From an uncultured Gammaproteobacteria bacterium (GTDB lineage Bacteria > Pseudomonadota > Gammaproteobacteria > Steroidobacterales > Foliamicaceae), in NCBI GenBank assembly GCA_951828235.1, contig OX639965.1, positions 2,245,556 through 2,309,555 of the forward strand: a stretch of DNA of 64,000 nt. The letters run 5' to 3'. A program made the position numbers and the translations under genes. The notes beneath the pieces are model-generated. The model did no database searches, had not been told where the DNA came from, and was given only the letters and a program-made list of their open reading frames with translations. Position 1 is the stretch's first letter. Each line of letters begins with the position of its first letter. Positions 46,880-62,379 of the stretch are shown here, in pieces.

Positions 46880-47467
46880 ATGAATCTTATGCGGCTCATC
46901 ATTGGAATCTCCGGCGCCAGCGGCGTCATTTACGGCATCCGGCTGCTGCAGGCGCTGCGCGAGACTGACGGCGTGGAAACGCACCTCGTCATCAGCAATG
47001 GCGGCAAGGTCAATATCGCGCTGGAGACGGACTGGAAGGTGCGCGACGTCGAGGCGCTGGCGGATGTCGTGTATTCCGACAGCGATGTGGCGGCGACGAT
47101 TGCCAGCGGTTCCTTTCGAACCGGAGGCATGATCGTGGCGCCCTGTTCCATGAAGACGCTGGGCGCAATCGTGAATTCGTATGCGGCCAACCTGCTCGCG
47201 CGCGCGGCCGACGTAACGCTGAAGGAGGGCCGGAGGCTGGTGCTGGCGCCGCGCGAAACGCCGCTGCATGCCGGCCATCTGCGGCTGATGCACGAAGCGG
47301 CGCTGATGGGCGCGATCGTCGCCCCGCCAGTACCGGGTTTCTACGCCAAGCCGGACACGGTGGAAGACATCGTCAACCACACCGTCGGAAGGCTGATGGA
47401 CCTGTTCGGCCTGGAAACGGACCTGGTGCGCCGCTGGCCAGGCGGCAAGGCGGCAGCGAAGAACTAG
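46880..47467 (+). CDS. ubiX: Flavin prenyltransferase UbiX
   Basis: RLIIGISGASGVIYGIRLL, MIVAPCSMKTLGAI and RETPLHAGHLRLM. ATG 46880 lies only 3 nt after the tRNA, so ATG 46889 is an equally plausible start. Confidence 0.9.
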   Translation: MNLMRLIIGISGASGVIYGIRLLQALRETDGVETHLVISNGGKVNIALETDWKVRDVEALADVVYSDSDVAATIASGSFRTGGMIVAPCSMKTLGAIVNSYAANLLARAADVTLKEGRRLVLAPRETPLHAGHLRLMHEAALMGAIVAPPVPGFYAKPDTVEDIVNHTVGRLMDLFGLETDLVRRWPGGKAAAKN

Positions 47468-47946
47468 GTGGTTGGCGGGCGTCGGGCGCAGGTGGTCCAG
47501 TGGCGAATGCGCCAGTCGCCATTTATTTTTTCGGCCACCAGGGTGCCCATGCCTTCCTTGGTGCGCCTTTGCCCGTCCCTGACGGCGGAGGCGCGGAAAA
47601 CGAACACGCCGTAGGACAGATCGCCGTTTCCGAAGGCGTGCACCAGCTGCGCCTTGTATTCCATGTCCTTGAGCATGCCCAGTTCGAGGCTGAGGTGATT
47701 CTGGTCATAGTCCGCCCAGCCGTAATTGGGATAGCTGGATTCGACACTCAGGAACTCTTCATCCGTGCGCATGCAGGCCTCGACTTCGGAAAGCTCCGCC
47801 GACTCGACGCCCTTCGCGTAACGGTCAAGCAGTTCCTGCAGCTCCTTCTGGATTCCGCTCAGCGTTTCTGCGGGGCCGAGCACGGGCATGTCGGAAATGG
47901 GGCGCGTGACCCATGCCGGCATTTCTCTTCCACCTGGTGCGGCCAT
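47464..47946 (-). CDS. NTF2-fold (SnoaL/DUF4440-like) protein
   Basis: LLDRYAKGVESAELSEVEACM...GVFVFRASAVRDGQRRTKEGMGTLVAEKINGDWRIRHW follows the pattern of NTF2-like cone proteins. Weak, fold-level call. Confidence 0.45.
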   Translation of the reverse strand: MAAPGGREMPAWVTRPISDMPVLGPAETLSGIQKELQELLDRYAKGVESAELSEVEACMRTDEEFLSVESSYPNYGWADYDQNHLSLELGMLKDMEYKAQLVHAFGNGDLSYGVFVFRASAVRDGQRRTKEGMGTLVAEKINGDWRIRHWTTCARRPPTT

Positions 47947-48012
47947 GACGATGTCTCCTGCGGTTGATAAGCGGGGGGCAACTTTACCGCAGTCTCGCTG
48001 TACCGGCTAGAA

Positions 48013-48816
48013 TTGCGCGCCATGAAAGAGAGGAAGACCGCCATCGTGACCGGCTCGGCCACCGGTGTTGGCGCTGCGACGGCCGAGTTGCTGGCAGCCC
48101 GCGGCTGCAATGTCGTGGTGAATTACACCCGCAGCGAAAAGGAAGCGAAGGAGACCGCCGCTCGCTGCGAAGCGGCAGGCGCCGAAACGAGGGTGGTGCA
48201 GGCGGACGTTTCCGAAGACGCCGACTGCAAGTCCATGGCCGCCGCCGCCATGGATGCCTGGGGGCGGATCGACTACCTGGTGAACAATGCCGGGCGCACC
48301 AAGTTCAACCCCTTCGCCAATCTCCACGGCATCGAAAAGCAGGACTTCCTCGACATCTACGCGGTCAACGTGGTGGGCACCTACCAGATGATCCGCGCCG
48401 TGGAACCGCACATGCGGGCCGTCGGCAGCGGCGCCGTGGTCAACAACTCGTCGATCGGCGGCATTACGGGCATCGCGTCGTCGATCCCGTACGCCGCATC
48501 CAAGGCCGCGCTGAACCTGATGACCAAGTCGCTGGCGCATGTGCTGGGGCCTGAAATCCGCATCAACAGCGTCGCGCCCGGTTTGATCCAGACCCGCTGG
48601 CTGAAGGGCGGAATGGGCGATGAGGCGTATGAGGCCATGCTGGAAATGGCACGCGAGGGACTGCCGCTGAAGCAGGTCGCCGAGCCGCAGGATGTCGCCG
48701 AGGTCATCGTCTGGTTCCTGGAAGGCGCGCCGCTCGTCACCGGGGAGACCCTGATTGCCGACAGCGGCGTGCACCTGGGGCAGTTGCCCACGTTGGCAAC
48801 CGGCGACAAGGAATGA
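48013..48816 (+). CDS. Short-chain dehydrogenase/reductase (FabG-like)
   Basis: TAIVTGSATGVGAA (TGxxxGxG), NNAG, and catalytic YAASKAAL. Confidence 0.85.
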   Translation: MRAMKERKTAIVTGSATGVGAATAELLAARGCNVVVNYTRSEKEAKETAARCEAAGAETRVVQADVSEDADCKSMAAAAMDAWGRIDYLVNNAGRTKFNPFANLHGIEKQDFLDIYAVNVVGTYQMIRAVEPHMRAVGSGAVVNNSSIGGITGIASSIPYAASKAALNLMTKSLAHVLGPEIRINSVAPGLIQTRWLKGGMGDEAYEAMLEMAREGLPLKQVAEPQDVAEVIVWFLEGAPLVTGETLIADSGVHLGQLPTLATGDKE

Positions 48817-48847: not shown

Positions 48848-49816
48848 TTGAGTCCGGGGGCGAAAAAGAACGCCACTCTGGCGCAACTCAGGGCGCGGCT
48901 GCGGCTGCCCGCGTTCGCCGCGCCCATGTTCCTGGTCTCGGGTCCCGAACTCGTGATCGAGGCCTGCAGGGCGGGCGTTATCGGCGCGTTCCCGTCCCTT
49001 AACGCCCGTCCTCTCGAGACGCTGGAGGATTGGCTCAAGCAGATTTCGGCGACGCTGGCCGAAGCAGAGCGGGCAAACCCCGGTAGGATCGCTCCCTGGG
49101 CGGTGAACCTGATCGTGCACCGCAGCAACAAGCGGCTGGCCGAAGACCTCGACCTCACGGTGAAATACCAGGCGCCAATGGTCATCAGTTCGCTGGGCAG
49201 TCCGAAGCTGGTGCGCGAGCAGGTGCACTCCTACGGCGGCCTGCTGTATAGCGATGTCAACAGTTTGTTCTACGCACGCAAGGCCGCCGATGCGGGCGCC
49301 GACGGCCTGATCCTGGTGGCGGCCGGCGCCGGCGGGCATACGGGCATGATCACGCCGTTTGCGTTTCTGGCCGAGGTACGCAAGTTTTTCGATGGCGCCA
49401 TCGTGCTTGCCGGCGGAATCTCCTCGGGAGCGGACATAGCGGCCGCTATTGCGATGGGCGCCGATCTTGCCTATGTGGGAACACGTTTCATCGCCGCGCG
49501 TGAGAGTCTGGCTTCGGATTCGTACAAGCAGATGCTGGTGGACAGCGGGGCGGATGACCTGGTTCTGACGCCGTACTTCACGGGTGTTCCCGCAAACTAC
49601 TTGAAAAAGAGCGTCGCAAATGCAGGCATTGATCCGGAGGAATTGCGAAAGGCAAACCCTGAAATCCAGTTTGACAATGAGGAAAAGCGCTCGCGCGCCT
49701 GGCGAGACATTTGGTCGGCGGGGCAGGGAGTAGGGGCAGTGGAACGGGTGCAATCCACCGCGGAACTCGTGTCCGAACTGAAAGAAGGATACCAAAGGGC
49801 TATCGGAAGGCTTTGA
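48848..49816 (+). CDS. Nitronate monooxygenase / NPD-family FMN oxidoreductase
   Basis: LPAFAAPMFLVSGPELVIEACRAGVIGAFP, ADGLILVAAGAGGHTG and GADLAYVGTRFIA. There is no ATG upstream of the conserved N-terminus, so TTG 48848 is chosen and the start is uncertain. Confidence 0.75.
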   Translation: MSPGAKKNATLAQLRARLRLPAFAAPMFLVSGPELVIEACRAGVIGAFPSLNARPLETLEDWLKQISATLAEAERANPGRIAPWAVNLIVHRSNKRLAEDLDLTVKYQAPMVISSLGSPKLVREQVHSYGGLLYSDVNSLFYARKAADAGADGLILVAAGAGGHTGMITPFAFLAEVRKFFDGAIVLAGGISSGADIAAAIAMGADLAYVGTRFIAARESLASDSYKQMLVDSGADDLVLTPYFTGVPANYLKKSVANAGIDPEELRKANPEIQFDNEEKRSRAWRDIWSAGQGVGAVERVQSTAELVSELKEGYQRAIGRL

Positions 49817-49855: not shown

Positions 49856-49864
49856 ATTTGGTTT
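49856..49864. repeat. Left target-site duplication ATTTGGTTT
   Basis: Identical 9-mer at 51202-51210, immediately outside the two IS ends. Confidence 0.7.
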
Positions 49865-51201
49865 CACTACTGTCCCAACAATATCGGTTTGAGTCTGCAT
49901 AAGGTATTGTTTTGACGAGATAAATATGGGATTTTCGAGGGGCATCGATTTGAACGCCGGGCCGTGCATGCCGGAGTCGGCCTCCCTTATTGTGGCGGTT
50001 TATCCGTTGGGGGAGGCAGGTTATGCATTCCGGACGATACGTGTTTTCGCAGCTCATGGAGCATCTACCGGCCAAGACCTTTCGCCGGTGTGTGCGTCGA
50101 TACCACGGCGACCGGCATGTCCAGTCGTTCACTTGCCTGGACCAGTTCTTGTGCCTGACGTTCGCGCAATTGACCCACCGCGAAAGCTTGCGCGACATCG
50201 AGGTTTGCTTGCGCGCGCATCGCGAGAAGCTCTATCACATGGGGATCCGCGGCGGCATGGCCCGCAACACGCTGGCCAATGCGAACCGGAAACGGGACTG
50301 GCGCATTCACGCGGACTTCGCGCAAGCCTTGATTCGCATCGCGCGCCCACTGTACGCCGAGGAGGATCTCGGGAACGCGACAACACCGTCTACGCGCTCG
50401 ATTCCTCCACCGTCGATCTGTTCTGTCCGTGTTTCCCTGGGCCTTGTTTCGCTCCACCAAGTCCGGCGTCAATCTGCGTACGCTACTGGACCTGCGCGGC
50501 AACATCCCGGCGTTCATCCAAGTGTCCAATGCCAAGTTGCACGATGTCAACGTGCTGGACCTGCTGGTGCCCGAACCCGGCGCGTTCTACATCATGGACC
50601 GAGGGTATGTGGACTTCGAACGTCTGTTTCTACTGCACCGCCTGGGCGCGTTCTTCGTCGTGCGCGCCAAGTCCAACATCCAGTTCCGGCGCCGCTACTC
50701 CGCCGCCGCGGACAAGTCCGCGGGCGTGCGCTGCGACCAAACCATCGTGCTGACCGGCATCGAGACCCGCAAGCGCTATCCTCAGCCGCTGCGCCGAGTC
50801 GGGTATTACGATGCACAATCGGACCGGCGATTCAACTTTCTTACCAACCACTTCGCCGTGCCGGCGGCAACCGTCGCCGAACTGTACCGCCATCGGTGGC
50901 AGGTGGAATTGTTCTTCAAGTGGATCAAGCACCACCTGCGCATCAAGTCCTTTTTCGGCGCCTCGGAGAATGCGGTGAAAACCCAACTCTGGAGCGCCGT
51001 CTCCGTGTATGTGCTGGTGGCCATCGTCAAGAAACGGCTCAACATCTCCGCCGACCTCTACACAATTCTGCAGATACTGAGCCTCACCCTGATCGAAAAA
51101 CTCCCATTGAATCATCTACTTGCAAAAACCCAATACATCCCAGAAAATCAGCACTCAATGAACTAACTGAATTTGTTCACATAATTGTTGGGACACTACT
51201 G
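49865..51201 (+). mobile_element. IS4-family insertion sequence (1337 bp) with an inactivated transposase
   Basis: Ends CACTACTGTCCCAACAAT (49865-49882) and ATTGTTGGGACACTACTG (51184-51201) form an 18-bp inverted repeat matching at 16/18. Flanked by the 9-bp direct repeat ATTTGGTTT. The interior encodes a DUF4372 + DDE (IS4-type) transposase. Confidence 0.8.
50023..51166 (+). pseudogene. IS4-family transposase, disrupted by two frameshifts
   Basis: N-terminal MHSGRYVFSQLMEHLPAKTFRRCVRRYHGDRHVQSFTCLDQF... in frame 1 up to ~50375. NTVYALDSSTVDLF in a second frame (~50380-50425). FPWALFRSTKSGVNL...YRHRWQVELFFKWIKHHLRIKSF (DDE C-terminal block) in a third frame to 51166. Confidence 0.8.
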
Positions 51202-51210
51202 ATTTGGTTT
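51202..51210. repeat. Right target-site duplication ATTTGGTTT
   Basis: Identical 9-mer at 49856-49864. Confidence 0.7.
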
Positions 51211-51284
51211 ATACTCGTTCCTTAAACTTTCAGTTTCTTCCAAAAAAAGACCTTACTCTGGAAGTCCTATAGGAGGGGTGTGAA

Positions 51285-54200
51285 ATGCGTAAATTCCTGG
51301 TAACTGCGCTGTTCCTGACCATGGCGCTCGGTGACGCCGCCTTCGCTCAATCGGCGCAAGATGAAGAAGAAGACGCGGAGGAAATAACACAGGAGGCACC
51401 GGGAGAGGTACCGGAGCAGGTGCCGGAAGAGGAAGCGATGGATGAAATCGTCGTGACCGGCTCCCGAATCCGGCGCGACGAGTTCACCAGCGCAGCGCCG
51501 GTCCAGATCATCGACGGCCAGGTCTCCCGCGAACTGGGCCTGATTGACACGGCGGCATTGTTGCAGAGCGCAACCCAGGCAACGGGCACCCAGATTGACA
51601 GCACCTTTACGGCCTTCGTCGTGGACAACGGCCCGGGCGCTGCTCAGATCAATCTCCGCGGGCTGGGCGTCCAGCGCGTTCTGATACTGCTCAACAGCAG
51701 GCGGGTCGCTCCGGGCGGCGTGGGCGGCGCGCCTACCTCGCCGGACATCTCGACCATACCGAACGTGATGATCGACCGGATCGAGTTACTGCTGGACGGC
51801 GCATCGTCCATCTACGGCTCGGACGCCGTGGCGGGCGTGGCCAACGTAATCATGAGAAAGGACTTCGAAGGGTTCGAATTCGAGGGCGTGTTCGAAGCGA
51901 CGGACCACCCAGGGGGTGGAGAACAGACGATGGGCCTGGCCTGGGGCAGGACCGCCGATAACTGGACGCTCGGAGTGGCCGCCGAGGTCTATGATCGTAA
52001 GCGGGTCCGATTGCGTGACCGCCCCTACACCGAGCAGTGCAACCGCCTCTTTTACGAGGATGAGAACGGCAATCCCTTGAGCAATTACCTGGGTCTGGTG
52101 CCCGGCACCACCTTGAGTCCCTGCGCGCTCAGAACCATGAACCGGGTGTTCATACCGGTCGGTTTCGGCAACGTCTGGTACACGCCGGGCACAACCAATA
52201 TCGGCATTCCCAATTTCTCGGAGACGGAAGTTCCCGTGGGATTCACCGGGTTCAACCCCGCGGCCATCGTGCCGATTGATACCGATGGCGACGGCATCCC
52301 GGACACGGGCCTGGTGGATCCGGACCGCAACGGCGTCTCGGAGATTGACCTGCAGACGGACGCCTACAACTACAACGGTTCGGACCGGGACCGCGCCGGC
52401 GACCTGCTTCCCAACTCCCGGCGTGTCAATCTGTACGCGTACGGTGAGCACGACCTGGGCAATGCGAGCAACTCGCAGGCGTACTTCGAGTTCCTGTACG
52501 CGAACCGGAAGACGGAAGTCTTCTCGCCCGGGGCCAGCATCTTCCCGGACGTTCCACCCAACAACCCCTACAATCCCTGCAACCAGTTCCAGCCCAACGG
52601 GGCCAACTGCCTTGGGTTCTTCGGCTTCAATTTCGGGAATTTCGAGGTGACTCCGATCGTCCACATTCGCGGCGACCGGGACAACAATGACGTAGAAGTC
52701 GAGCAGGTTCGCATGGTGGCGGGAATGCGCGGCGACCTTCCCGGATGGCGGAACAACTCGGGTTTCGGCAACTGGGGATACGATTTCTACTTCAGTCATT
52801 CGTCCTCGCGGGGCACCGATTTCCAGACCGGCATTCTGGAGCGGGAACTGACCCTGTCTCTGGAGACTTCGGTCATGGATCCCGCAACCGGAGAGATCAC
52901 CTGCGGCAATGGTCAGCCGTGCGTGCCGGTGAACATGTTCGCGGACTCGATCTATCAGCCGGGCGGGGGTGATTTCGCTACCCCGGAGGAGCGCGACTTT
53001 GTCTTCGGCCTGCGCAGCTTCGATACGAAAATCTACCAGTCCATATTCAGCGGCGTTCTGCAAGGTGATGTGGCGACCTTGCCCTGGAACAACACCTCTA
53101 TCCCGCTGGTGGTGGGTGTCGAATACCGGGAGGACGAGATCAACTCGATACCGAACGACGTGGCCCGCGAAGGCCTGCTGATCGCCTTCTTCCGCGACGG
53201 CGGGGCGGTGGGCAAGCGGGACATCACAGAGCTGTTCATGGAAACCGAACTGCAGTTGCTGGAGGGTGTCACCCTGGCGCAGGACCTTTCCCTGAATCTC
53301 GCGGTTCGCTGGACCGAAGAGAGCACCTACGGAAGTGATACCACCTACAGTGTCAAGAGCGTCTATTCGCCTTTCGAAGGCATTACGTTCCGCGGCACTT
53401 ACGGCACTTCGTTCCGCGCGCCGAACACGCACGAGCAGTTCCTGGCCGGAACTTCCGGCTTTGCGACCATTTTCGACCCCTGCGTAGTCCCCATCTCTGC
53501 CCGGGATGCGTCGTTGAATCCGAATGAACCGGCGACCTACAATTCGGACGAGGACCTGCGGGAGCAGGCCACGCTCGACAACTGCCGGGCGAACGGCGTG
53601 GACCCGACAACGCTGGGACTGGACGGTCTGAACACGACCTATTCCGTGGAACGATTGCGCAAGGGCGGGCAGCAGGTTCAGCTGGACATCGATCCGGAAA
53701 CCTCGACCTCCTATACCTACGGCATCGTACTGGACCAGCCGTTCTGGGACACCTTCACGCTGCGCGCCGGGGTGACCTATTACGACATCAATGTGGAGAA
53801 CACGATCAGCCAGTTGGGCACGGGCTTCATCGTTAATGACTGCTACGTGGAACAAGCGAACAACGCCAGCGCCTTTTGCCGGTTCATCAACCGGGGCGCC
53901 AATGGCCTGATCGAGCTGGTTGAAGCCAGCTTCATCAACATCAACGCCATTACGTCGCGGGGCATCGACTACAACGTGTACTTTCAGCGTGACTTCATCG
54001 TTGCCGACCGGAACCTGAATATTGACGTGGACTTCAGGGTTTCGCGCCTATTGGAGAACAACTTCATTTTCCGCGACGCCGAGGAGGACGACGCCGGCAC
54101 CCCGGTTGCGCCCGAGTGGGAAGGCACTGCCCTGCTGGTTGCGACCTACGGCAGATACCGCTTCAACTGGCGAGCGAACTATATCCACGGCGAGGAAGAC

Positions 54201-54476
54201 GACCCTGGCGATTTCTTTGTTGGAGCGCCCTGCGCCACGCTGGACGTGATGTGCCGGCCGATTGCGAGGACCGATTCATACTGGACGCATTCCGCCTCGC
54301 TGACCTGGATCCCCCGCGACTGGGAGATCACACTGGGGATAGTGAACCTGTTCGACGAAGAGCCGCCCCTGATGGATAACGGCGCGCCGGAAGTACAGTT
54401 GAACAACATTCCGCTGGGAGCGGGTTACGATCTGCTGGGGCGGCGCGTCTTCCTGTCGGTGAGAAAACAGTTCTAG
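51285..54476 (+). CDS. TonB-dependent outer-membrane receptor (1063 aa)
   Basis: AGGAGG RBS. Signal peptide MRKFLVTALFLTMALGDAAFA, acidic spacer, plug DEIVVTGSRIRR...NLRGLGVQRVLILLNSRR...LLLDGASSIYGSDAVAGVANVIM. Aromatic C-terminus LSVRKQF. Confidence 0.9.
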   Translation: MRKFLVTALFLTMALGDAAFAQSAQDEEEDAEEITQEAPGEVPEQVPEEEAMDEIVVTGSRIRRDEFTSAAPVQIIDGQVSRELGLIDTAALLQSATQATGTQIDSTFTAFVVDNGPGAAQINLRGLGVQRVLILLNSRRVAPGGVGGAPTSPDISTIPNVMIDRIELLLDGASSIYGSDAVAGVANVIMRKDFEGFEFEGVFEATDHPGGGEQTMGLAWGRTADNWTLGVAAEVYDRKRVRLRDRPYTEQCNRLFYEDENGNPLSNYLGLVPGTTLSPCALRTMNRVFIPVGFGNVWYTPGTTNIGIPNFSETEVPVGFTGFNPAAIVPIDTDGDGIPDTGLVDPDRNGVSEIDLQTDAYNYNGSDRDRAGDLLPNSRRVNLYAYGEHDLGNASNSQAYFEFLYANRKTEVFSPGASIFPDVPPNNPYNPCNQFQPNGANCLGFFGFNFGNFEVTPIVHIRGDRDNNDVEVEQVRMVAGMRGDLPGWRNNSGFGNWGYDFYFSHSSSRGTDFQTGILERELTLSLETSVMDPATGEITCGNGQPCVPVNMFADSIYQPGGGDFATPEERDFVFGLRSFDTKIYQSIFSGVLQGDVATLPWNNTSIPLVVGVEYREDEINSIPNDVAREGLLIAFFRDGGAVGKRDITELFMETELQLLEGVTLAQDLSLNLAVRWTEESTYGSDTTYSVKSVYSPFEGITFRGTYGTSFRAPNTHEQFLAGTSGFATIFDPCVVPISARDASLNPNEPATYNSDEDLREQATLDNCRANGVDPTTLGLDGLNTTYSVERLRKGGQQVQLDIDPETSTSYTYGIVLDQPFWDTFTLRAGVTYYDINVENTISQLGTGFIVNDCYVEQANNASAFCRFINRGANGLIELVEASFININAITSRGIDYNVYFQRDFIVADRNLNIDVDFRVSRLLENNFIFRDAEEDDAGTPVAPEWEGTALLVATYGRYRFNWRANYIHGEEDDPGDFFVGAPCATLDVMCRPIARTDSYWTHSASLTWIPRDWEITLGIVNLFDEEPPLMDNGAPEVQLNNIPLGAGYDLLGRRVFLSVRKQF

Positions 54477-54533
54477 GGAGTTTGCGGGAATTCTGCAGCG
54501 GACCGGCCCGATGAAGAAGAAAAGGAGTGGCCG

Positions 54534-56519
54534 ATGAAGATCAGAATCCGTTTTCTGGCGGGCGTATGTCTCGCGCTGCCTCTGTTTGCCATGGCGCAGG
54601 AACAACAGGCGCTGTCCGGGTATGAGGCGTTTGCCCAGGAGCCCGCGATGAGCTCCGCGGCGGTCTCGCCTGACGGCGGGCACCTGGCCACGCTGCAACG
54701 GTTCGCCAAGGACGGCAAGCAGTTCCTGCTGATCTACGACCTGGGCGATATGGCGAAGAAGCCCGTTACGATGGGCTCGGACCGCATGGATATCGTTTCC
54801 GCCGGCTGGGCCAACAATGAGCGGCTTATTGTGCGGTTCCGGCAGGACGTGGACACGCTGCAGAGGCTGGGTGCGGATACCCGTCAGGTCAGCAAGCTGG
54901 CCACCGTGGACCGGCAAGGCAAGCGGTGGCTGGAAATTCCCCGCAGACGCGCCGACCGGCGAAGCGAGTTCTCCAAGACCGTACAGCAATTCGGCGGCGC
55001 GGCCGTTTTTGACCGCTTGCCCAAGGACGACGACCACATCCTGATTTACTACGACGACGATCAGAATTTCGTGGCGGACATCTTCCGGGTCAATGTCGAG
55101 ACAGGCTCGGCCCAGCGGGTGGCGAAGAACAGCGACCGGATCACGATCACCTATATGGACGATGACGGGGATCCCAGGCTTGCCTCCCGTTTTGACGAGA
55201 GCGCAGAGGCCATCATCGAACTGGCCCGGCTGAAGGGAGAAACGGAGTGGATCGAGATCGGCCGCACCCAGGCCAATGTGGACAGCGCCAGCTCGGTATT
55301 CAACGCCTTTCGGGTTGTGGGACCGCCATCAAGCAACGAGTTCTATGTTCTCTCCAACCACGAGACGGACACCGCCGCGATCTACACCTTTGATCTGGAG
55401 ACCCGGGAATTCGGCGAAATGCAGTTCATGCATCCGCAATACGACGCGACCGGAGTCAGGACCCGACTGGACGAAGAGAAAAACGATGTGATTATCGGGT
55501 TCACGTTCACGGGAAAGGGGGGCGATGTCTTTCTGGTGGATCCGAAGGAAAAGGCGCTTTACGAGGCGCTCAACGGGATATTGCCGGACACGGCGAACAG
55601 CATCGTATCCCGTTCGCTCGACGGCAACACGATGGTCATTCGCGCCGAAGGCCCCCGAATGCCGCCGTCCTGGTATCTGCTCAAGGACGGCCGCCTGGAT
55701 ATGCTTGGCCGTTCGATGCCGTTCCTGACCGAGGACATGCTGGCCGACGTGGAGTGGGTCCGCTATAAGGCGCGTGACGGTATGGAGATTCCGGCGCTGG
55801 TGACGGTACCGCAGGGGGACGGTCCTTTCCCGCTAGTGGTCCTGCCCCACGGCGGGCCGGTTGCGCGGGACTATTGGGGCTTCGACGTCTGGGCGCAGCT
55901 GCTGGCCTTCCACGGCTACGTGGTGATTCAGCCGCAGTTCCGTATCTCGTCGGGTCTTGGCCGGAAGCACCTGGAGGCGGGCTACGGGCGCTGGGGCCAC
56001 GAAATGCAGGACGATCTCGAAGACGCGATCGGCTATCTGACGGACCGGGGTTTGGGCGATCCGGGCCGTGCCGCCATATTCGGCTGGAGTTACGGCGGAT
56101 ACGCTGCTTTTGTCGGCTCCTTCCGGGACCCGAATCCGTTTCGCTGCGCTATCTCAGGGGCCGGTGTCGCCGACCTGCCGTACTTCAGGGCCTGGCTGGC
56201 CGATTCCGGGACCCTGCTGGAAAAGGCGTATCGGCCCACCGTGGACGGCCTGAGCCCTCTCGAGCACGTGGACAGCGTCGATGTCCCCATCCTGGTCATC
56301 CACGGCGACATTGACGAGCGCGTGCCGGTGGCGGAGAGCCGAAAATTCGTGGACAAACTCAAGCAGTACGACAAGCAGCACAAGTACATCGAGCTTGAGG
56401 ACGCGAACCACTTCTTCGGCACGATCTACTACCGCCACTTCATGCAAATGTATCCGGCCATGATCGACTGGCTGGACAACACCTGCAGCCTCAAGGCCCC
56501 CGCGACGGCCGCAAACTAG
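54534..56519 (+). CDS. S9-family serine peptidase (prolyl oligopeptidase/dipeptidyl peptidase type), exported
   Basis: Signal peptide MKIRIRFLAGVCLALPLFAMA, beta-propeller-like N-terminal half, catalytic FGWSYGGYAAF, HGDIDERVP and DANHFF. Confidence 0.85.
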   Translation: MKIRIRFLAGVCLALPLFAMAQEQQALSGYEAFAQEPAMSSAAVSPDGGHLATLQRFAKDGKQFLLIYDLGDMAKKPVTMGSDRMDIVSAGWANNERLIVRFRQDVDTLQRLGADTRQVSKLATVDRQGKRWLEIPRRRADRRSEFSKTVQQFGGAAVFDRLPKDDDHILIYYDDDQNFVADIFRVNVETGSAQRVAKNSDRITITYMDDDGDPRLASRFDESAEAIIELARLKGETEWIEIGRTQANVDSASSVFNAFRVVGPPSSNEFYVLSNHETDTAAIYTFDLETREFGEMQFMHPQYDATGVRTRLDEEKNDVIIGFTFTGKGGDVFLVDPKEKALYEALNGILPDTANSIVSRSLDGNTMVIRAEGPRMPPSWYLLKDGRLDMLGRSMPFLTEDMLADVEWVRYKARDGMEIPALVTVPQGDGPFPLVVLPHGGPVARDYWGFDVWAQLLAFHGYVVIQPQFRISSGLGRKHLEAGYGRWGHEMQDDLEDAIGYLTDRGLGDPGRAAIFGWSYGGYAAFVGSFRDPNPFRCAISGAGVADLPYFRAWLADSGTLLEKAYRPTVDGLSPLEHVDSVDVPILVIHGDIDERVPVAESRKFVDKLKQYDKQHKYIELEDANHFFGTIYYRHFMQMYPAMIDWLDNTCSLKAPATAAN

Positions 56520-56554: not shown

Positions 56555-57955
56555 TCAGCCCGTCGGCCAGCGCGGGTGGTGCAGGTCGATCACGTAGTCG
56601 TGCGAGTGCCGCTTGGGATCGTGGCGGTGCGGATGGCTGTGCGGTTCCTCGCCTTCGCCGCCTTCGTGGGCGTGCTGGTGATGTCGGTCGTGGAAGTGCT
56701 TGTGGGTGTGCTCCACCGCCTCGTGCTCGTGCAGGACTTCCTCGTGGTCCTCGCGTGGCCAGAGCCGGGCGCCCGCTGCCGCCAGCACGATGCAGATCAG
56801 TCCCAGGATCAGGCCTGCCGTGGAGAGTCCCAGCGTCGTTCCCAGCCATCCCGCCAGCGGATAGCCGACCAGCCAGGCGCAATGCGACAGCGAAAAGTGA
56901 GCCGAGAAGTACGCCGGCAAATCGGCCGGGCTGGAGGAGCGGTTGATTACCCGGCCCGAGGGTGTGTAGACCCAGGAGCCGCCCGCTCCCATGACCGCCC
57001 ACAGCACGAGTACCGGTATGAGTCCTGGGGACAGGATCATGAACAGGGCCGCCGAACCCGCCAGCAATGCGCCGCGTGAGATTAGCTGACGGCTCTTGAT
57101 GCGGCTCAGGATCAAGGGGGTGGTCAGGGCCGCGGCCATGGAACCGGCGCCGTAGGCCAGCATGGTCACGGCTACCAGGAATTCCGCGCCGCCCAGTTCG
57201 GTGCGCACGTAGTCGACGTTGTTCACCAGCACCGCGCCGCTGACCATGGCGGCGCCAAAATAGAGCACCAGCAGCGCCCGCAGCCTGGGCGTGGCCATGT
57301 AGGAACGCAAGCCGAAGGTCACGTCGTCCAGCACCCGCCCGGTGCGCTCCACAGGGGCGATGGCGGGAAGCCGAGTGACGATGATCAGCAGCGCCGAGAT
57401 CAGGAACGCGGCGGAATTCAGCTCGAACAGCAGCTCGAAGCCGCCTCCGGCGGCCATCAGCGTAATCGCCAGCATCATGCTGCCGACCGTTTCCAGATCG
57501 TAGGCCATACGGGTCCAGGAAAGCGCCCGGGTGTACGTGGCATTGTCGGGCAGGACGGTCGGAATGATGGCCTGGAACACTGGCTTGAACGCCGCCGACA
57601 ACCCCTGCACGGCGAAGATGAGCAGGTAGATTTGCCATTCCGTGGTGACGAAGGGCAGCAGCAATACGAGGCCCGCCCGTATGACGTCGCTCGTCACCAG
57701 GATGGACTTGCGCGATGTGCGATGCGCCAGGCCGCCGCAGATCGGCGCCAGGAAAACGTAAGCGATCATCTTGATCGACAGGGCCGTGGCCAGCACCGGC
57801 GCCGCCTGGCCGCCGGTCAGCCGGTAGGCCAGCAGCTGCAGGCCGACGGTGCTCAGGCCCGTTCCCACCAGCGCGATGACCTGGGCCGCGAACAGCCGCC
57901 GGAAAGCCGCGTAGCGGAACGGGTTGTCCTGCATGGGCAGCGCGCTCTTGTTCAT
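56555..57955 (-). CDS. MFS transporter (EntS/MFS_3-like) with a His-rich cytoplasmic tail
   Basis: FRRLFAAQVIALVGTGLSTVGL plus about 12 TM segments. The last 66 residues contain 19 His (HEEVLHEHEAVEHTHKHFHDRHHQHAHEGGEGEEPHSHPHRHDPKRHSHDYVIDLHH). The ATG overlaps the stop of the upstream acyl-CoA synthetase (ATGA). Confidence 0.8.
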   Translation of the reverse strand: MNKSALPMQDNPFRYAAFRRLFAAQVIALVGTGLSTVGLQLLAYRLTGGQAAPVLATALSIKMIAYVFLAPICGGLAHRTSRKSILVTSDVIRAGLVLLLPFVTTEWQIYLLIFAVQGLSAAFKPVFQAIIPTVLPDNATYTRALSWTRMAYDLETVGSMMLAITLMAAGGGFELLFELNSAAFLISALLIIVTRLPAIAPVERTGRVLDDVTFGLRSYMATPRLRALLVLYFGAAMVSGAVLVNNVDYVRTELGGAEFLVAVTMLAYGAGSMAAALTTPLILSRIKSRQLISRGALLAGSAALFMILSPGLIPVLVLWAVMGAGGSWVYTPSGRVINRSSSPADLPAYFSAHFSLSHCAWLVGYPLAGWLGTTLGLSTAGLILGLICIVLAAAGARLWPREDHEEVLHEHEAVEHTHKHFHDRHHQHAHEGGEGEEPHSHPHRHDPKRHSHDYVIDLHHPRWPTG

Positions 57956-59472
57956 CCCTCGGAGCCCGCATAGAGCCGGCGCAGTTCCGTTTTCTGGAGC
58001 TTGCCCTGCGGGCTGATCGGCAATTCGCTCACGATCTTCACCTGTTTGGGAATCTTATAGCGCGCCAGGTTGGCCCGGCATTGTTCCAGGACTTCCCCGG
58101 CGGTCACCCGCCTGCCCTTGCGCGGCAGGACCAGCGCCATCCCGACCTCGCCCCACTTGGAATCCGGCACGCCGATCACGCCCGCCATGCTGACCGCCGG
58201 CATCTTCACGATCACGTTCTCGATCTCGGTCGGATAGACGTTCTCGCCGCCGGAAATGAACATGTCCTTGATCCGGTCCACCATGAAAAGCGTTCCGTCC
58301 TCGTCCATGCGGGCCCCGTCGCCGGTCCGAAACCAGCTGTTGACCCGGGACGCGGCCGTGAGCTCCGGATCGCGCCAGTATCCCGGCGTTACGCCCGGAC
58401 CCCGCAGCTGAATCTCGCCCACCTCGCCGGGAGGCAGCTCCTTGCCCTGGTCGTCGCCGACCTGCAGCTCCACGTGCATCATCGGCTGGCCCGCCGAACC
58501 CAGCATCTCGCGGGCGCGGTGGGGCGGCGTCAGCGTGACGCTGAAACACTCGGTCAGCCCGTAGGACTGGGCCAGGGCCACGCCCTTCGCTTCCCAGGTT
58601 CGCAGCAGTTGCATGGATACGGGAGCGCTGCCCACGCCCAGGCAAACCAGCGTCGGAAACCTGGCGCTTTCGAATTCCGGCAGCTCGCTCATCATCAGGT
58701 AATGCGTGGGCACGCCGATGCAATGCGTAATCCCCATTTCGGCATCGACCAGGTAGCTCAGGCATTTCTCCGCGTCCCAGCGCGGCATCACATAAAGGCA
58801 TCCCCCGTAGTGGAACAGCGGTGTGCCCGCCCCGTTCAAACCGGCGGTATGAAACAGCGGGGCGTAAGTCAGGCTTACGGAATCCCGCGACATGCCGGCG
58901 TGCAATGCAGCGCACAGCACCGTGTTGTGGGTCATGCGGTAGTTGTATGCCACGCCCTTGGGCCTGCCGGTGGTCCCGGAGGTGTACAGGAGACAGTTGA
59001 GATCATCGCCGGCGAGTTCCGGCATGACCGTCTCCGAGCCGTGGCCGGCAATCAGTTTCTCGTAATCCGAATTGCTGCCGGCGCGGCGGATGAGCATCGC
59101 CCCTTGTTCCCAGCCTTCCGCCAGCGAGGCGTATTCCTCGTCGCAGAACAGCACCTTCGGCTCGCCGTGCGCGAGCAGGGCGGCAATTTCCACCGGGTGC
59201 AGCCGCCAGTTCAGCGGCACGAAGATCGCGCCCAGCTTCCAGCAGGCAAACATGAGTTCGTAGAAATCGGTGCTGTTGGCGGCGATGATGGCCACGCGGT
59301 CGCCTTTGCCCACGTCGTGCTCCGCGGCCAGACCGGTAGCAAGCCGCGCACTGCGGTCGTTGATTTGCGTGTACGTGAAGCGCCGGCCGGTTCCCAGGTC
59401 CACGCAGGCCGGCAAATCGCCGTTGTAGCGGGCGTGGTAGGCCAGCCAGTCGTAGACCCTGTCGCTGCTCAA
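57952..59472 (-). CDS. AMP-dependent acyl-CoA synthetase/ligase
   Basis: LLYTSGTTGRPKGV (AMP-binding motif), YGLTEC, WFRTGDGARMDEDG and ISGGENVYPTEIE, with C-terminal lysine PQGKLQK. Confidence 0.9.
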   Translation of the reverse strand: MSSDRVYDWLAYHARYNGDLPACVDLGTGRRFTYTQINDRSARLATGLAAEHDVGKGDRVAIIAANSTDFYELMFACWKLGAIFVPLNWRLHPVEIAALLAHGEPKVLFCDEEYASLAEGWEQGAMLIRRAGSNSDYEKLIAGHGSETVMPELAGDDLNCLLYTSGTTGRPKGVAYNYRMTHNTVLCAALHAGMSRDSVSLTYAPLFHTAGLNGAGTPLFHYGGCLYVMPRWDAEKCLSYLVDAEMGITHCIGVPTHYLMMSELPEFESARFPTLVCLGVGSAPVSMQLLRTWEAKGVALAQSYGLTECFSVTLTPPHRAREMLGSAGQPMMHVELQVGDDQGKELPPGEVGEIQLRGPGVTPGYWRDPELTAASRVNSWFRTGDGARMDEDGTLFMVDRIKDMFISGGENVYPTEIENVIVKMPAVSMAGVIGVPDSKWGEVGMALVLPRKGRRVTAGEVLEQCRANLARYKIPKQVKIVSELPISPQGKLQKTELRRLYAGSEG

Positions 59473-59571
59473 TTGGCGCTCCTCATGCGCTGGCTAACCC
59501 CTGCCCGTGGAAAGAGAGGGTAAATTGCATTAGGCTGCCCCTTTACGCAAGTGCCGACGGGAGGATTGTTC

Positions 59572-61068
59572 ATGGCATACGAGGATTTTCGGGCCTTCCT
59601 TGATCTGCTGGAGGAGCGCGGCGACTTGCGCCGCATCACGGAACCGCTGTCCGCGGCGCTGAACGAATCCGATCTGCAGCCGCTTATGGCGCTTCTGCAC
59701 AGCGGCGCCAACCGCGCCCTGATCCTGGAGAACCTGATCGGCTACAACACGCCGGACGTTCCCGTCGCATTCAATCCCTACGGCTCGCGCGAACGCACCG
59801 CGCTGTGTATCGACGAGGAGGACGTGCTCGAAGCCAAGCGCAAGCTGGCCCGCGTGCTGGCGGACCCCGCAGGCTGGCACAAGCCGGTGATGGTGGACCG
59901 TGAGAAAGCACCCTGCAAGGACGTGGTGATTCCCGAGGAAGAAGTGTCGCTGGGTAAGAACATTCCGCACGTGTGGTTCGGAAAGGAGGGGCCGGCCTAC
60001 ATCACCAACGGCATCGCGATCACAAAGGACCCGGAGACCGGCGCCCGCAACGTGGGCTGGTACCGCCATACCCAGCTCTGGAACGCCCAGCATCCGGCCG
60101 GCGGCGAGTATTCGCAGCACAACCAGGACCGCTCCCTGGCGGTCTTCGTGTACTGGAACCCGCCGATGAACCACGGCGGCCTGCACCTGGCCAAGGCCAT
60201 AGCCGCCGGCAAGACCCTGGAAATCGCGATTGCCTGCAACTGCGACCCGGCGGTGCACCTGGCGTCGGCCACCGGCCTGCCGTTCGGCCAGGACGAGTAC
60301 GACTTTGCCGGCGGTTTGCGCGGGGCGCCGGTCAAGCTGGTGAAGTGCGACACGGTGGACATCGAAGTGCCCGCCTCCGCCGAATACGTGCTGGAAGGCG
60401 AGTTCCTCCCTGGCCAGCAGGAGCAGATCGGCTGGCACTCCAATCCGCTCGGCTATTACGACAAGGTGCAGGTGTTCCCGCTGATGCAGGTCAACCACAT
60501 CACCCATCGAAGGAACCCTATCTGGCACTCCACCATGGAGATGGTGCCGCCGTTCGATCACAACTACCTGGCGTTGCTGCCGGTGGAAGGCGAAGTCTTA
60601 AGCGACCTGGGGCGCAAGATTCCCGAGGTCAAGGATGTGGTGGTAACGCCCAACATGACCTATATCGTGCAACTGAGCGTGGACGGCGCCACCAAGCCGC
60701 ACTCGGAATTCGGCAAGTACGTGCTGCACGCCGTGTGGGGCGCGGCCGGGCGTTGGGGGCGCACCGCCAAGCTGGTAATCGTGGTGGGCCCGGACGTCGA
60801 TCCGTACGATCTGAAATCGGTGGAATGGGCGATCATGACCCGGGTGCAGCCGGTCTCGGACATCATCATGAACCCCTCCGGCCAGGCCTTCGTGCTGGAT
60901 CCCTCGGCGCCGAAGTCGGCCCAGGGCGTGCCGGTGCAGTCCGAGCAGATGGGCATCGACGCCACGGTGAAGATTCCGGAACGGTTCACGGACTACCCGG
61001 AGGTCAGCCAGGCCGATCCCGCGGACGTGGCGGCGCTGGCCGAGCGGCTGGGCGACGCCGTCGACTAG
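59572..61068 (+). CDS. UbiD-family (prFMN-dependent decarboxylase-like) protein, atypical active-site motif
   Basis: Collinear with E. coli UbiD as I remember it: DFRAFLDLLEERGDLRRI, NVGWYRH, EYDFAGGLRGAPVKLVKC, VPASAEYVLEG, HITHRRNPIWHST, WAIMTRVQP, MGIDAT. GGGAGGA RBS precedes ATG 59572. Confidence 0.85.
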   Translation: MAYEDFRAFLDLLEERGDLRRITEPLSAALNESDLQPLMALLHSGANRALILENLIGYNTPDVPVAFNPYGSRERTALCIDEEDVLEAKRKLARVLADPAGWHKPVMVDREKAPCKDVVIPEEEVSLGKNIPHVWFGKEGPAYITNGIAITKDPETGARNVGWYRHTQLWNAQHPAGGEYSQHNQDRSLAVFVYWNPPMNHGGLHLAKAIAAGKTLEIAIACNCDPAVHLASATGLPFGQDEYDFAGGLRGAPVKLVKCDTVDIEVPASAEYVLEGEFLPGQQEQIGWHSNPLGYYDKVQVFPLMQVNHITHRRNPIWHSTMEMVPPFDHNYLALLPVEGEVLSDLGRKIPEVKDVVVTPNMTYIVQLSVDGATKPHSEFGKYVLHAVWGAAGRWGRTAKLVIVVGPDVDPYDLKSVEWAIMTRVQPVSDIIMNPSGQAFVLDPSAPKSAQGVPVQSEQMGIDATVKIPERFTDYPEVSQADPADVAALAERLGDAVD

Positions 61069-61086
61069 CGTTTACAGGCCCTGACA

Positions 61087-61494
61087 TTGGCGGAGCCGGT
61101 CGATCTTTCGCAGCTTCCGAGGCTGACGAGCCGCGAGGCGGTCGGCGGCGAACTGGTTTCGGTGGACGCCGACGCCGGCGCCGTCACGGCACGCTACAGG
61201 CCTCCGCCGGAATTGGCCAACCCGATCGGTTCGCTGCAGGGCGGCTTTGCGCTGGCCATTCTGGACGATGTCAGCGGCTCCACCACCTGGTTCGGCGGAG
61301 GCGGACGTCCGTTCACCACGGCGCAGATATCCGCCAATTTCCTCAAGGCCGTGCCCATGGGCGAACCACTCGTGGGTGAGGGCCGGATCGTGCACAACGG
61401 GCGCCGCCAGTGTGTGGTCGAGGCGGAGCTGAAGCGCGAGAAGGACGGCGCCGTGCTGGTCCGTGCCACGGTGATGAACGTATACCTCAAATAG
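61087..61494 (+). CDS. PaaI/hotdog-fold thioesterase
   Basis: NPIGSLQGGFALAILDDVSG and GRIVHNGRRQCVVEAEL are typical of the PaaI/4HBT-II family. TTG start. Confidence 0.75.
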   Translation: MAEPVDLSQLPRLTSREAVGGELVSVDADAGAVTARYRPPPELANPIGSLQGGFALAILDDVSGSTTWFGGGGRPFTTAQISANFLKAVPMGEPLVGEGRIVHNGRRQCVVEAELKREKDGAVLVRATVMNVYLK

Positions 61495-61518
61495 GGGACG
61501 GCGCCCCTCCTTGAGCTG

Positions 61519-62379
61519 ATGGTGGACATGAAAAACCTCACCGCACCTGCCCAGGCGGTGCGCGCGGACGTGCGCCGGGCGCTGCGCGAAGACTTGGGCG
61601 CCGGCGACGTGTCAGCCGATTTGCTGCCCGGCGATTCTCATGCAGCGGCGGTGGTCGTGGTGCGTGAAGAGTGCGTGCTGTGCGGACGCGACTGGTTCGA
61701 GGAGGCGTTTCGCGCCTGCGACGAGCGCATCGTCGTGCGCTGGCGGGTTGCCGAGGGCGCGGTCACGGCGGCGGGCGAGTCCGTCTGCGAGCTTGAGGGA
61801 CCGGTGCGGGGACTGCTGAGCGGCGAACGGTCGGCCCTGAATTTTCTGCAGATGCTGTCGGCCGTAGCGACGCATACGCGCGCCATGGTGAAGGCGCTGG
61901 AAGGCTCTCGAGCGGTCCTCCTGGATACCCGCAAGACGCTGCCCGGTCTGCGCGCGGCGCAGAAATACGCGGTGCGCGTGGGCGGCGGAAGCAATCACCG
62001 CATGGGCCTGTACGACGCCGTATTGCTGAAGGAAAACCATATCGCAGCCGCGGGAAGTGTTCGTGCAGCGCTCAAGGCCGCCTCGGGCATCGAGGCGGCC
62101 CTCCCGATCACGGTGGAAGTGCAGGACCTCGAGGAGTTTGCCGAGGCCTTGGACGCCGGTGCACGGTGGGTAATGCTGGACAACTTCACCCTGGATCAAT
62201 TGGCTGCGGCCGTCAGCGCACGCGACCGCCGGGGGTTGGAAGTGTCATTGGAAGCTTCAGGCGGAATCGGGCCGGAAAACGTTGCCGAAGTCGCCGCCAC
62301 CGGCGTGGACCGTATCTCCTGCGGCGCCCTGACCAAAAACATCAGGGCGTGCGATTTCTCCATGCGGATCACGGCCTGA
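61519..62379 (+). CDS. nadC: Nicotinate-nucleotide diphosphorylase (quinolinate phosphoribosyltransferase)
   Basis: ERSALNFLQMLSAVAT, LLDTRKTLPGLRAAQKYAVRVGGGSNHRMGLYDAVLLKENHI and LEASGGI. Confidence 0.92.
   Translation: MVDMKNLTAPAQAVRADVRRALREDLGAGDVSADLLPGDSHAAAVVVVREECVLCGRDWFEEAFRACDERIVVRWRVAEGAVTAAGESVCELEGPVRGLLSGERSALNFLQMLSAVATHTRAMVKALEGSRAVLLDTRKTLPGLRAAQKYAVRVGGGSNHRMGLYDAVLLKENHIAAAGSVRAALKAASGIEAALPITVEVQDLEEFAEALDAGARWVMLDNFTLDQLAAAVSARDRRGLEVSLEASGGIGPENVAEVAATGVDRISCGALTKNIRACDFSMRITA

Follow-up and report, generated by a model that had tools for sequence, protein, structure and literature searches.

An atypical UbiD-family gene and its genus-restricted acyl-CoA synthetase/thioesterase pair in an uncultured gammaproteobacterium

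We analysed a 64,000-nucleotide stretch (the window) of contig OX639965.1, assembly GCA_951828235.1, from an uncultured gammaproteobacterium with a 3.11-Mb genome, and focused on the locus around an atypical gene of the UbiD (de)carboxylase family. This gene is flanked by genes for a major facilitator superfamily (MFS) transporter, an acyl-CoA synthetase (the ligase), a PaaI-type thioesterase and NadC. The original prediction was that transporter, ligase, UbiD-like enzyme and thioesterase form one module that activates a carboxylic acid and decarboxylates it. We give a probability of about 0.5 to a different reading, in which the locus is a composite: an old core of a short-chain dehydrogenase/reductase (SDR) and UbiD, with or without ubiX, to which a genus-specific and dispensable ligase/thioesterase pair, the MFS gene and nadC were added, with the pair serving as an optional branch. 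Part of the predicted module survived the analysis, as the ligase and thioesterase do behave as a pair (present together in 14/14 complete loci, and lost together). The remainder did not, as the UbiD-like gene persists without the pair, its active-site loop is altered, and its match to phthaloyl-CoA decarboxylase is local. A module of the phthaloyl-CoA type is unlikely at this locus.

The open reading frame (ORF) list and family scans bore out the predicted positions and families of the four genes. On the minus strand, the gene for an efflux-like MFS protein of DHA3/EntS-like type with a His-rich C-terminal tail (56555-57955; PF07690, PF05977) is coupled to that for a genus-specific ANL-family acyl-CoA synthetase resembling FadD13 and feruloyl-CoA synthetases (57952-59472; PF00501, PF13193) through an ATGA at 57955-57952, which combines the start of the MFS gene with the stop of the ligase gene. 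A TTG at 59472, 6 nt past a GAGGAG, opens the ligase frame. As read from the DNA, a divergent gap of 99 bp separates the ligase from ATG 59572, which lies 7 nt past a GGAGG and starts the plus-strand UbiD-like gene (59572-61068; 498 aa; PF01977, PF20695, PF20696, TIGR00148). A start at GTG 59551 was rejected as an over-extension of the frame, because the orthologues and E. coli UbiD align from the Met at 59572. After the UbiD stop codon (61066-61068), an 18-nt gap leads to TTG 61087, the start of a genus-specific PaaI/THEM2-type hotdog thioesterase (61087-61494, plus strand; PF03061, TIGR00369), which is followed by nadC, encoding quinolinate phosphoribosyltransferase (61519-62379, plus strand; TIGR00078, 299.9 bits against a cut-off of 198.4). 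The ubiX gene for flavin prenyltransferase, the synthase of prenylated flavin mononucleotide (prFMN), is located within the window at 46880-47467 (plus strand; NF004685, 271 bits against a cut-off of 188), about 12 kb from the UbiD-like gene, as had been noted before. The closest records to the locus are metagenome-assembled genomes (MAGs) of uncultured Gammaproteobacteria, several of which are named Candidatus Foliamicus.

For 74 loci that carry a relative of the UbiD-like protein, the window proteins were mapped by tblastn. Thirteen further related genomes (14 with the window) showed the arrangement MFS, ligase, UbiD, thioesterase and nadC, with the first two genes diverging from the rest, a recurrence that excludes chance as the origin of the four-gene layout within the genus. 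The full order was confined to loci with a UbiD identity of at least 88%, i.e., inside the genus, and none of the 55 loci with 60–73% identical orthologues had the MFS, ligase, thioesterase or nadC gene beside UbiD. A further 20 loci came from genomes in five other families (f3, f12, f16, f19 and f22 in our numbering) of the same order. SDR and UbiD genes stood together in 16 of these, usually with UbiX, and none had an adjacent ligase, thioesterase or MFS gene; two had a weak ligase-like match (27–29% identity) at 1.3–6.4 kb from UbiD. Within the genus, nadC trails UbiD or the thioesterase gene in all loci, which it never does in the distant loci, and the MFS gene is kept throughout, including where the ligase is missing. 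No homologue of the ligase, thioesterase, MFS or SDR gene was found within 12 kb of the host's other four UbiD paralogues. The expected linkage of ligase and thioesterase to UbiD among homologues is therefore absent beyond the genus (0/55 loci) and was lost at least twice inside it, and the gene-order case for an acid-activation/decarboxylation module fails once the comparison leaves the genus.

The ligase and thioesterase genes co-occurred in all 14 complete loci, window included, and no locus contained only one of them. Four genus loci (L016, L018, L020 and L021) lacked both, with MFS, UbiD and nadC intact. About 50 nt of the ligase 3′ end are left in the MFS-UbiD gap of L016, L018 and L021, and L020 has a degraded piece of the thioesterase gene (residues 6–65, E 4.5e-10) between UbiD and nadC. 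In a maximum-likelihood tree reconstructed from concatenated UbiD, MFS and NadC, the loci L016, L018 and L021 formed one clade (100/100), and L020 was sister to L019, which retains both genes (100/100). The tree thus implies at least two independent deletions of both genes, which lie on opposite sides of UbiD. Because they were lost together at least twice and no locus keeps only one, ligase and thioesterase are functionally tied; on this evidence from gene content, their repeated joint loss marks them as one functional unit. The UbiD frame is uninterrupted in the pair-less genomes G043, G075 and G088, and UbiD is therefore independent of this ligase for its substrate.

The gene that does accompany UbiD across families is the SDR gene (48013-48816, plus strand, in the window; PF13561, 187 bits), which was the most constant partner of the UbiD orthogroup when the ORFs of all loci were clustered and representatives scanned. 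SDR orthologues in f3, f12, f16, f19 and f22 are 66–88% identical and lie directly beside UbiD, usually divergently. In most families, UbiX and a small PNPOx-like split-barrel protein are encoded just past the SDR gene, sometimes with an NMO/FabK-like gene, which also occurs in some f16 loci. The ubiX gene adjoins the UbiD orthologue in most other families, and the window's copy is the sole UbiX in the host genome; the other PF02441 match (C1:1212507-1213019) falls inside a 415-aa open frame and is presumably Dfp/CoaBC. Close relatives have ubiX about 4 kb ahead of the UbiD start, and their genes read ubiX, an intervening ORF, SDR, NMO-like gene and then MFS. The NMO-like gene abuts the MFS gene in L083, L086, L087 and L091 (45-nt gap), and we therefore attribute the 12-kb distance of ubiX in the window to a local insertion and not to the native layout.

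The UbiD-like protein is a full member of its family with an unusual active site. PF20695, PF01977 and PF20696 were all above their cut-offs, as was TIGR00148 (267.8 bits against 244.85), whereas the equivalog of canonical ubiquinone UbiD, NF008175, was far below (191.5 bits against 788). E. coli UbiD was the best sequence match in the PDB (174.7 bits, ~30% identity, collinear over the full length) and HmfF the second (165 bits); phthaloyl-CoA decarboxylase (8oz5, 8pmk) matched with 58 bits over query residues 243–290 only, at rank 34–35 of the PDB matches. An AlphaFold2 model (predicted TM score [pTM] 0.83) had HmfF, E. coli UbiD and VdcC as top Foldseek matches with TM scores of 0.7–0.8, led by HmfF (target-normalised TM score 0.82; E. 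coli UbiD ~0.75), and phthaloyl-CoA decarboxylase was not among the top matches listed.

The alignment with E. coli UbiD shows N175, R180 and E241 to be conserved, and the orthologues have the N of RNVGWYR and the E of DEYDFAG without exception. The ligands of the metal and of the prFMN phosphate (N175, the His of SHRGG and E241) are kept, the pairing of the His in PPMNHGG with that of SHRGG being uncertain in an alignment region where pLDDT is low (196–199). Because these ligands are kept, the protein most likely still binds prFMN, as far as the alignment can indicate. The catalytic R-E-(E/D) triad (R180, E285 and D290 in E. coli UbiD; R173, E277 and E282 in Fdc1) is incomplete, with Arg retained, E285 replaced by Ile286 and D290 by Asn291. 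The loop that reads E285-G-P-Y-G-D290 in E. coli, and canonically E-G-P-(F/Y)-G-(E/D), is here I-G-W-H-S-N (UbiD residues 286–291; 60427-60444, plus strand, placed by the alignment with E. coli UbiD), of which I286, G287, H289, S290 and N291 are invariant in 26 orthologues. An insertion past the YR motif (residues ~166–188) has 21 residues, against 7 in E. coli UbiD, and ~20 across the orthogroup.

Six families of the order have orthologues, at 59–98% identity. Among 1.84 billion representatives searched, only about six 50%-identity clusters matched at 42–66% identity, and nothing else exceeded 39%; the insertion and the non-canonical loop are common to this group, and its sister clusters P0003–P0006 miss the acidic loop and retain a His. 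The host's UbiD family is expanded around the single UbiX, with five paralogues of which none is a canonical UbiD. The other four (C1:425677-427140, 905820-907328, ~1740540-1741889 and 1761033-1762472) have an (E/D)GP(F/Y)(G/A)E loop, with EGP in paralogues A, B and C and DGPFAE in E, and paralogue E has no E241 equivalent. Related 3.5-Mb genomes (G001–G003) have ~9–13 paralogues and 1.4-Mb genomes have 3–6; with 3 to ~13 UbiD paralogues per genome, ubiX has many clients.

The ligase scored 268 bits with PF00501 and 67 bits with PF13193 and has intact ANL motifs (TSGTTGRPKG at 164, YGLTE at 304, TGD at 383 and GK near 490). Its best PDB matches were the feruloyl-CoA/fatty-acyl-CoA synthetases 8weu/8wev (313 bits) and FadD13 (288 bits), followed by MatB and MenE at ~230–243 bits; no NCBIfam equivalog cut-off was reached (best PRK06187, 425 against 476). 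Ligase orthologues of 80–95% identity occur inside the genus only, with at most 58% outside. The 58% relative adjoins a WS/DGAT acyltransferase gene and a 44% relative adjoins genes for an acyl-CoA dehydrogenase and a CoA transferase; no UbiD, hotdog or MFS gene was found near either. In the long-read MAG chromosome that carries the 58% homologue (L093:4986-6522), its coding sequence is divided between two frames, and the WS/DGAT wax-ester synthase gene comes next.

The thioesterase matched PF03061 (50.5 bits) and, marginally, TIGR00369 (37.1 against 36.6), and its best PDB match was the PaaI-related protein 2pim (44 bits). The motif NPIGSLQGG...LDD, of the PaaI/THEM2-type form NxxGxxQGG...D, aligns with 2pim, and its downstream Asp is the predicted catalytic residue. 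A locus search based on the thioesterase returned one close relative and one 34% match only.

The MFS protein exceeded the cut-offs of PF07690 (88 bits) and PF05977 (MFS_3; 36.7 bits) and stayed below that of TIGR00900 (220 against 319.6). In sequence, it resembles the efflux DHA3/EntS type and is not an obvious acid importer. Its tail (56558-56755) is rich in His, Glu and Asp; 19 of the last 66 residues are His, which is uncommon among DHA3/EntS-like MFS proteins and suggests metal binding.

Within the divergent gap, a stretch of ~63 nt (59503-59565, plus strand) containing TTGCAT-N14-ACGCAA is nearly invariant in 12 genus loci, including three that lack the ligase, and was not found outside the genus. 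From this conservation, it is likely the promoter/operator region of UbiD. The divergent region had no Rfam match, and a promoter/terminator scan returned counts not above those of shuffled sequence. A sigma-54 site (TGGAAAG...TTGCAT) upstream of UbiD was ruled out on its spacing of 18 nt against 12.

According to the composite reading, the old core, spread over at least six families, would consist of the atypical UbiD and the divergent SDR, usually with the genome's only ubiX. Its UbiD enzyme would rely on another active-site loop, IGWHSN, in which the His is invariant, and would work without a dedicated CoA ligase. In the genus ancestor, the efflux-type MFS, the acyl-CoA synthetase, the PaaI-type thioesterase and nadC would have come to flank UbiD. 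The ligase would adenylate and thioesterify a hydrophobic or aryl-acrylic carboxylic acid, and the hotdog enzyme would hydrolyse the same class of thioester, either to release a product or as a PaaI-like safety valve that frees CoA. The pair could plausibly act on an acid pool made or consumed by the UbiD enzyme, which it would not feed with an obligatory CoA-thioester substrate. Both the sharing of a substrate between UbiD and the pair and the transport direction of the MFS protein are what we infer from the gene families and their arrangement.

Several points weigh against the composite reading. With one gene of the pair on either side of UbiD, and with a shared 99-bp divergent region, the arrangement would also fit a direct role in the UbiD reaction, and the suggested common acid pool rests on gene order. 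The pair-less genomes are smaller (~2.5–2.8 Mb) and have lost other genes, so the joint loss could partly reflect general genome reduction; UbiD paralogue A is missing in two of them, G075 and G088. Where this ligase is gone, UbiD might receive thioesters through a different ligase or a CoA transferase encoded elsewhere. The sequencing runs that carry 56555-62379 are DNA or contig runs, several labelled sponge metagenome, and no RNA runs were among those listed.

The distribution of the orthogroup bears on a possible role in ubiquinone synthesis. Among 121 sampled genomes of the order, the UbiD-like orthogroup was present in f1 (10/10), f16 (9/9), f22 (9/9), f3 (1/1), f12 (1/1) and f19 (2/9), and the positive f22 genomes are only 1.3–1.5 Mb. 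Canonical UbiD (58–79% identical to that of E. coli) was found in ten other families (3/3 in f17, where the unpublished genome G021, used for no other claim, is one of the three) but in none of f1, f16 and f22, where the best match to E. coli UbiD is 30–35% identical. UbiA was encoded in 115 of the 121 genomes. Two of the 32 orthogroup-positive genomes, G007 and G016, also have canonical UbiD, and their orthogroup copies are the closest outgroups (72–73% identity), already with IGWHSN. Five families (f2, f8, f11, f14 and f23) have a proteobacterial UbiA and no UbiD-family match with either query. A UbiB-dependent ubiquinone decarboxylation that bypasses UbiD and UbiX has been reported, and ~28% of ubiquinone-producing Pseudomonadota lack UbiX/UbiD (preprint 10.64898/2026.03.05.709815); the UbiA-positive, UbiD-free families agree with such a route. 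The chorismate lyase UbiC (PF04345) was not found in the host genome, and an ORF start/stop-coupled upstream of ubiA (L080:2358-3662) had no NCBIfam match. Supply of 4-hydroxybenzoate by the ligase and thioesterase was set aside; UbiC was not found, yet nothing positive supports this role.

These data allow the UbiD-like orthogroup to be read as the lineage's ubiquinone-pathway decarboxylase, a displaced form of canonical UbiD working with the adjacent ubiX, with the ligase, thioesterase and MFS either unrelated or forming a side route to the ring precursor. All sampled genomes of f1, f16 and f22 have the orthogroup, those of 1.3–1.5 Mb included, and they have UbiA but no canonical UbiD; across the order the two proteins are nearly complementary, with canonical UbiD alongside in only 2/32 orthogroup-positive genomes, a pattern that favours a ubiquinone role. 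The proximity to the only ubiX, the rank of E. coli UbiD as best PDB sequence match and the missing UbiC, which leaves the precursor route open, point the same way. However, the equivalents of E285 and D290 are Ile and Asn in every member, and the coexistence of an IGWHSN copy with canonical UbiD in G007 and G016 argues for a separate function. At least five families of the order manage with UbiA and no UbiD match, as the reported UbiD-independent route would allow, and the constant partner is an SDR and no ubi gene. The complementary distribution itself rests on few families and may be inherited. We regard a ubiquinone role as rather doubtful on balance. Alternatively, the acid could be imported and activated by the ligase, after which the UbiD-like enzyme would decarboxylate the CoA thioester, much as phthaloyl-CoA decarboxylase does, and the thioesterase would release the product. 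The order of ligase, UbiD and thioesterase, the shared divergent control region and the 18-nt UbiD-thioesterase gap would suit this scheme. A ligase and thioesterase that are always present or absent together are to be expected of a transient CoA handle, and the loss of two active-site acids could fit a different, bulkier substrate. Against this stand a UbiD that remains intact after loss of the pair in two lineages and in families that never had the pair, a phthaloyl-CoA decarboxylase match of 58 bits over 48 residues compared with 175 for E. coli UbiD and 165 for HmfF, an MFS protein that looks like exporters, and a ligase nearest to fatty-acyl/feruloyl-CoA synthetases and not to known dicarboxylate ligases, with MatB and MenE also scoring. 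Decarboxylation on the CoA thioester thus appears improbable to us.

The loss of both catalytic acids with the cofactor residues kept would also be expected if the protein were a prFMN-binding helper (a carrier, store or maturation factor) for the canonical paralogues, unrelated to the ligase and thioesterase. The gene is always near the single ubiX, its distribution tracks that of A-type UbiD paralogues (f1, f12, f16, part of f19 and f22) in genomes with 3 to ~13 paralogues, and accessory prFMN proteins are known in LpdD and PhdC (PMC10865409, PMC13040415). However, residues I, G, H, S and N of the substituted loop do not vary, as would be expected of a working active site, a full-size three-domain UbiD would be a costly chaperone, and G007 has the orthogroup although an A-type paralogue was not found there (genome 82% complete). 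We also know of no helper with a UbiD fold. A helper role is very unlikely.

More tentatively, and at well under even odds, the IGWHSN UbiD with SDR and ubiX may represent a new class of prFMN enzyme, with His-based in place of Glu-based catalysis, that either is the missing ubiquinone ring decarboxylase where canonical UbiD was lost or, in Ca. Foliamicus, acts on a CoA thioester made by the ligase. In the latter case, acyl-CoA decarboxylation would have arisen a second time, independently, within the UbiD family. The subfamily is small and conserved and lacks both catalytic acids, yet it occurs in every sampled genome of three families. If active, it would widen the known chemistry of prFMN enzymes; biocatalysis research has taken up UbiD enzymes as reversible (de)carboxylases. 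The subfamily also bears on the question of which enzyme serves as ubiquinone decarboxylase where canonical UbiD/UbiX is missing, and complementation of ubiD by it would explain ubiquinone synthesis in these lineages.

The remaining genes of the region lie between ubiX and the MFS gene. A minus-strand ORF at 47464-47946 (160 aa), weakly SnoaL/NTF2-like (SnoaL_3, 18.8 bits, under cut-off), is the plausible gene of the ubiX-SDR slot in the genus; the plus-frame ORF 47500-47967 has the composition of a wrong frame and a stop codon in L088. In other families, this slot holds the PNPOx-like split-barrel gene on the same strand as ubiX, which, by analogy, could be a candidate PhdC/YclD-type prFMN maturase. 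The slot gene of the window is not this PNPOx-like gene, having no BLAST or profile similarity to that of L066, and the latter was not found anywhere in the host genome. No PDB sequence match was found for the window's slot ORF, and the PDB look-up for the SDR was uninformative. An NMO/FabK-like flavin mononucleotide oxidoreductase gene (48848-49816, plus strand; PF03060, 92.8 bits; TIGR03151, 87 bits, under cut-off) follows the SDR gene.

The insertion (49856-56519) places 6.7 kb of extra DNA between the NMO-like gene and the MFS gene that is absent from this junction in the 97%-identical relative (L006/L083). It contains an insertion sequence remnant to 51210 with a DUF4372 transposase domain and genes with Pfam matches for a TonB-dependent receptor (51285-54476, plus strand, 1063 aa) and an S9 peptidase (54534-56519, plus strand). 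Its GC content is 0.57–0.62, against 0.65–0.67 in the flanking genes. At this junction, L085, L090 and L097 carry 1.3–1.45 kb of different DNA and L019/L092 an S9 peptidase gene, which makes it a recurrent insertion site.

Behind the UbiD orthologue, f16 and f22 loci carry a gene for a genuine phosphoenolpyruvate (PEP) mutase fused to a nucleotidyltransferase (TIGR02320, 379 bits), as in L066:6060-10466, L165, L167, L170, L173, L174, L176 and L177. It is often accompanied by genes for homoaconitase-like large and small subunits and a PrpB/CPEP-mutase-like protein, resembling a phosphonate biosynthesis cluster. Of 13 genomes with both PEP mutase and UbiD genes, 10 have the two side by side. A phosphonate role in the window's genome was ruled out, with PEP mutase found in 0/10 genomes of the genus.

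We compared the locus with characterized systems. In phdABC-type operons, which encode UbiD, UbiX and the maturase PhdC of HpaC-like flavin-reductase fold (PMC13040415), the gene content recalls the f12, f16 and f22 loci that read UbiX, PNPOx-like, SDR and UbiD, a likeness by arrangement alone; in the window's genus, by contrast, the PNPOx-like gene is absent and the minus-strand SnoaL-like ORF takes its place. The phthaloyl-CoA decarboxylase system of anaerobic phthalate degraders (PDB 8OZ5, 8PMK), in which the UbiD-family enzyme Pcd works with UbiX and a CoA transferase or ligase, is similar in that a UbiD-family gene adjoins a CoA-activating enzyme, with UbiX in the same region in relatives of the window. 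It differs in that the ligase linkage here is restricted to the genus and dispensable, the loop is IGWHSN and the match is a local one of 58 bits, and in that the present locus comes from uncultured MAGs and sponge-metagenome DNA and not from an anaerobic aromatic degrader. A thioesterase is also encoded here. The phthaloyl-CoA decarboxylase pathway needs no thioesterase.

With E. coli UbiD, a 3-octaprenyl-4-hydroxybenzoate decarboxylase (PDB 2IDB/5M1B-E), the protein shares the fold, a collinear sequence and N175/R180/E241, and the host has UbiA and UbiX; it differs in its ~30% identity, compared with 58–79% for the canonical UbiDs of the order, in the Ile/Asn in place of E285/D290 and in its longer insertion. 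The 4-chlorobenzoate pathway, with its ligase, on-CoA dehalogenase and 4HBT thioesterase, has the same logic of ligase, on-CoA step and thioesterase as decarboxylation on a CoA thioester would have here. As in that pathway and the PaaI safety valve of phenylacetate catabolism, an ANL ligase and a 4HBT/PaaI-type thioesterase are encoded and inherited together. However, the gene that they enclose encodes a UbiD homologue and is kept where the pair is gone, there are no dehalogenase or paa genes, and the PaaI match is weak (44 bits, with TIGR00369 barely above cut-off). Closest in structure is HmfF of the furfural/hydroxymethylfurfural (HMF) pathway (HmfF/HmfG with HmfD, namely a UbiD-type 2,5-furandicarboxylate decarboxylase, a UbiX and a 2-furoyl-CoA synthetase; PDB 6H6V/6H6X), the top structural and second sequence match. 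The identity is ~27–30%, however, and the ligase is optional here; no other hmf genes were seen among the genes annotated in and around the locus, for which no dedicated search was made. HmfF is taken to have the canonical acidic loop. In the HMF pathway, the free acid is decarboxylated and the product is then activated by a CoA ligase, a logic that would fit the gene set here.

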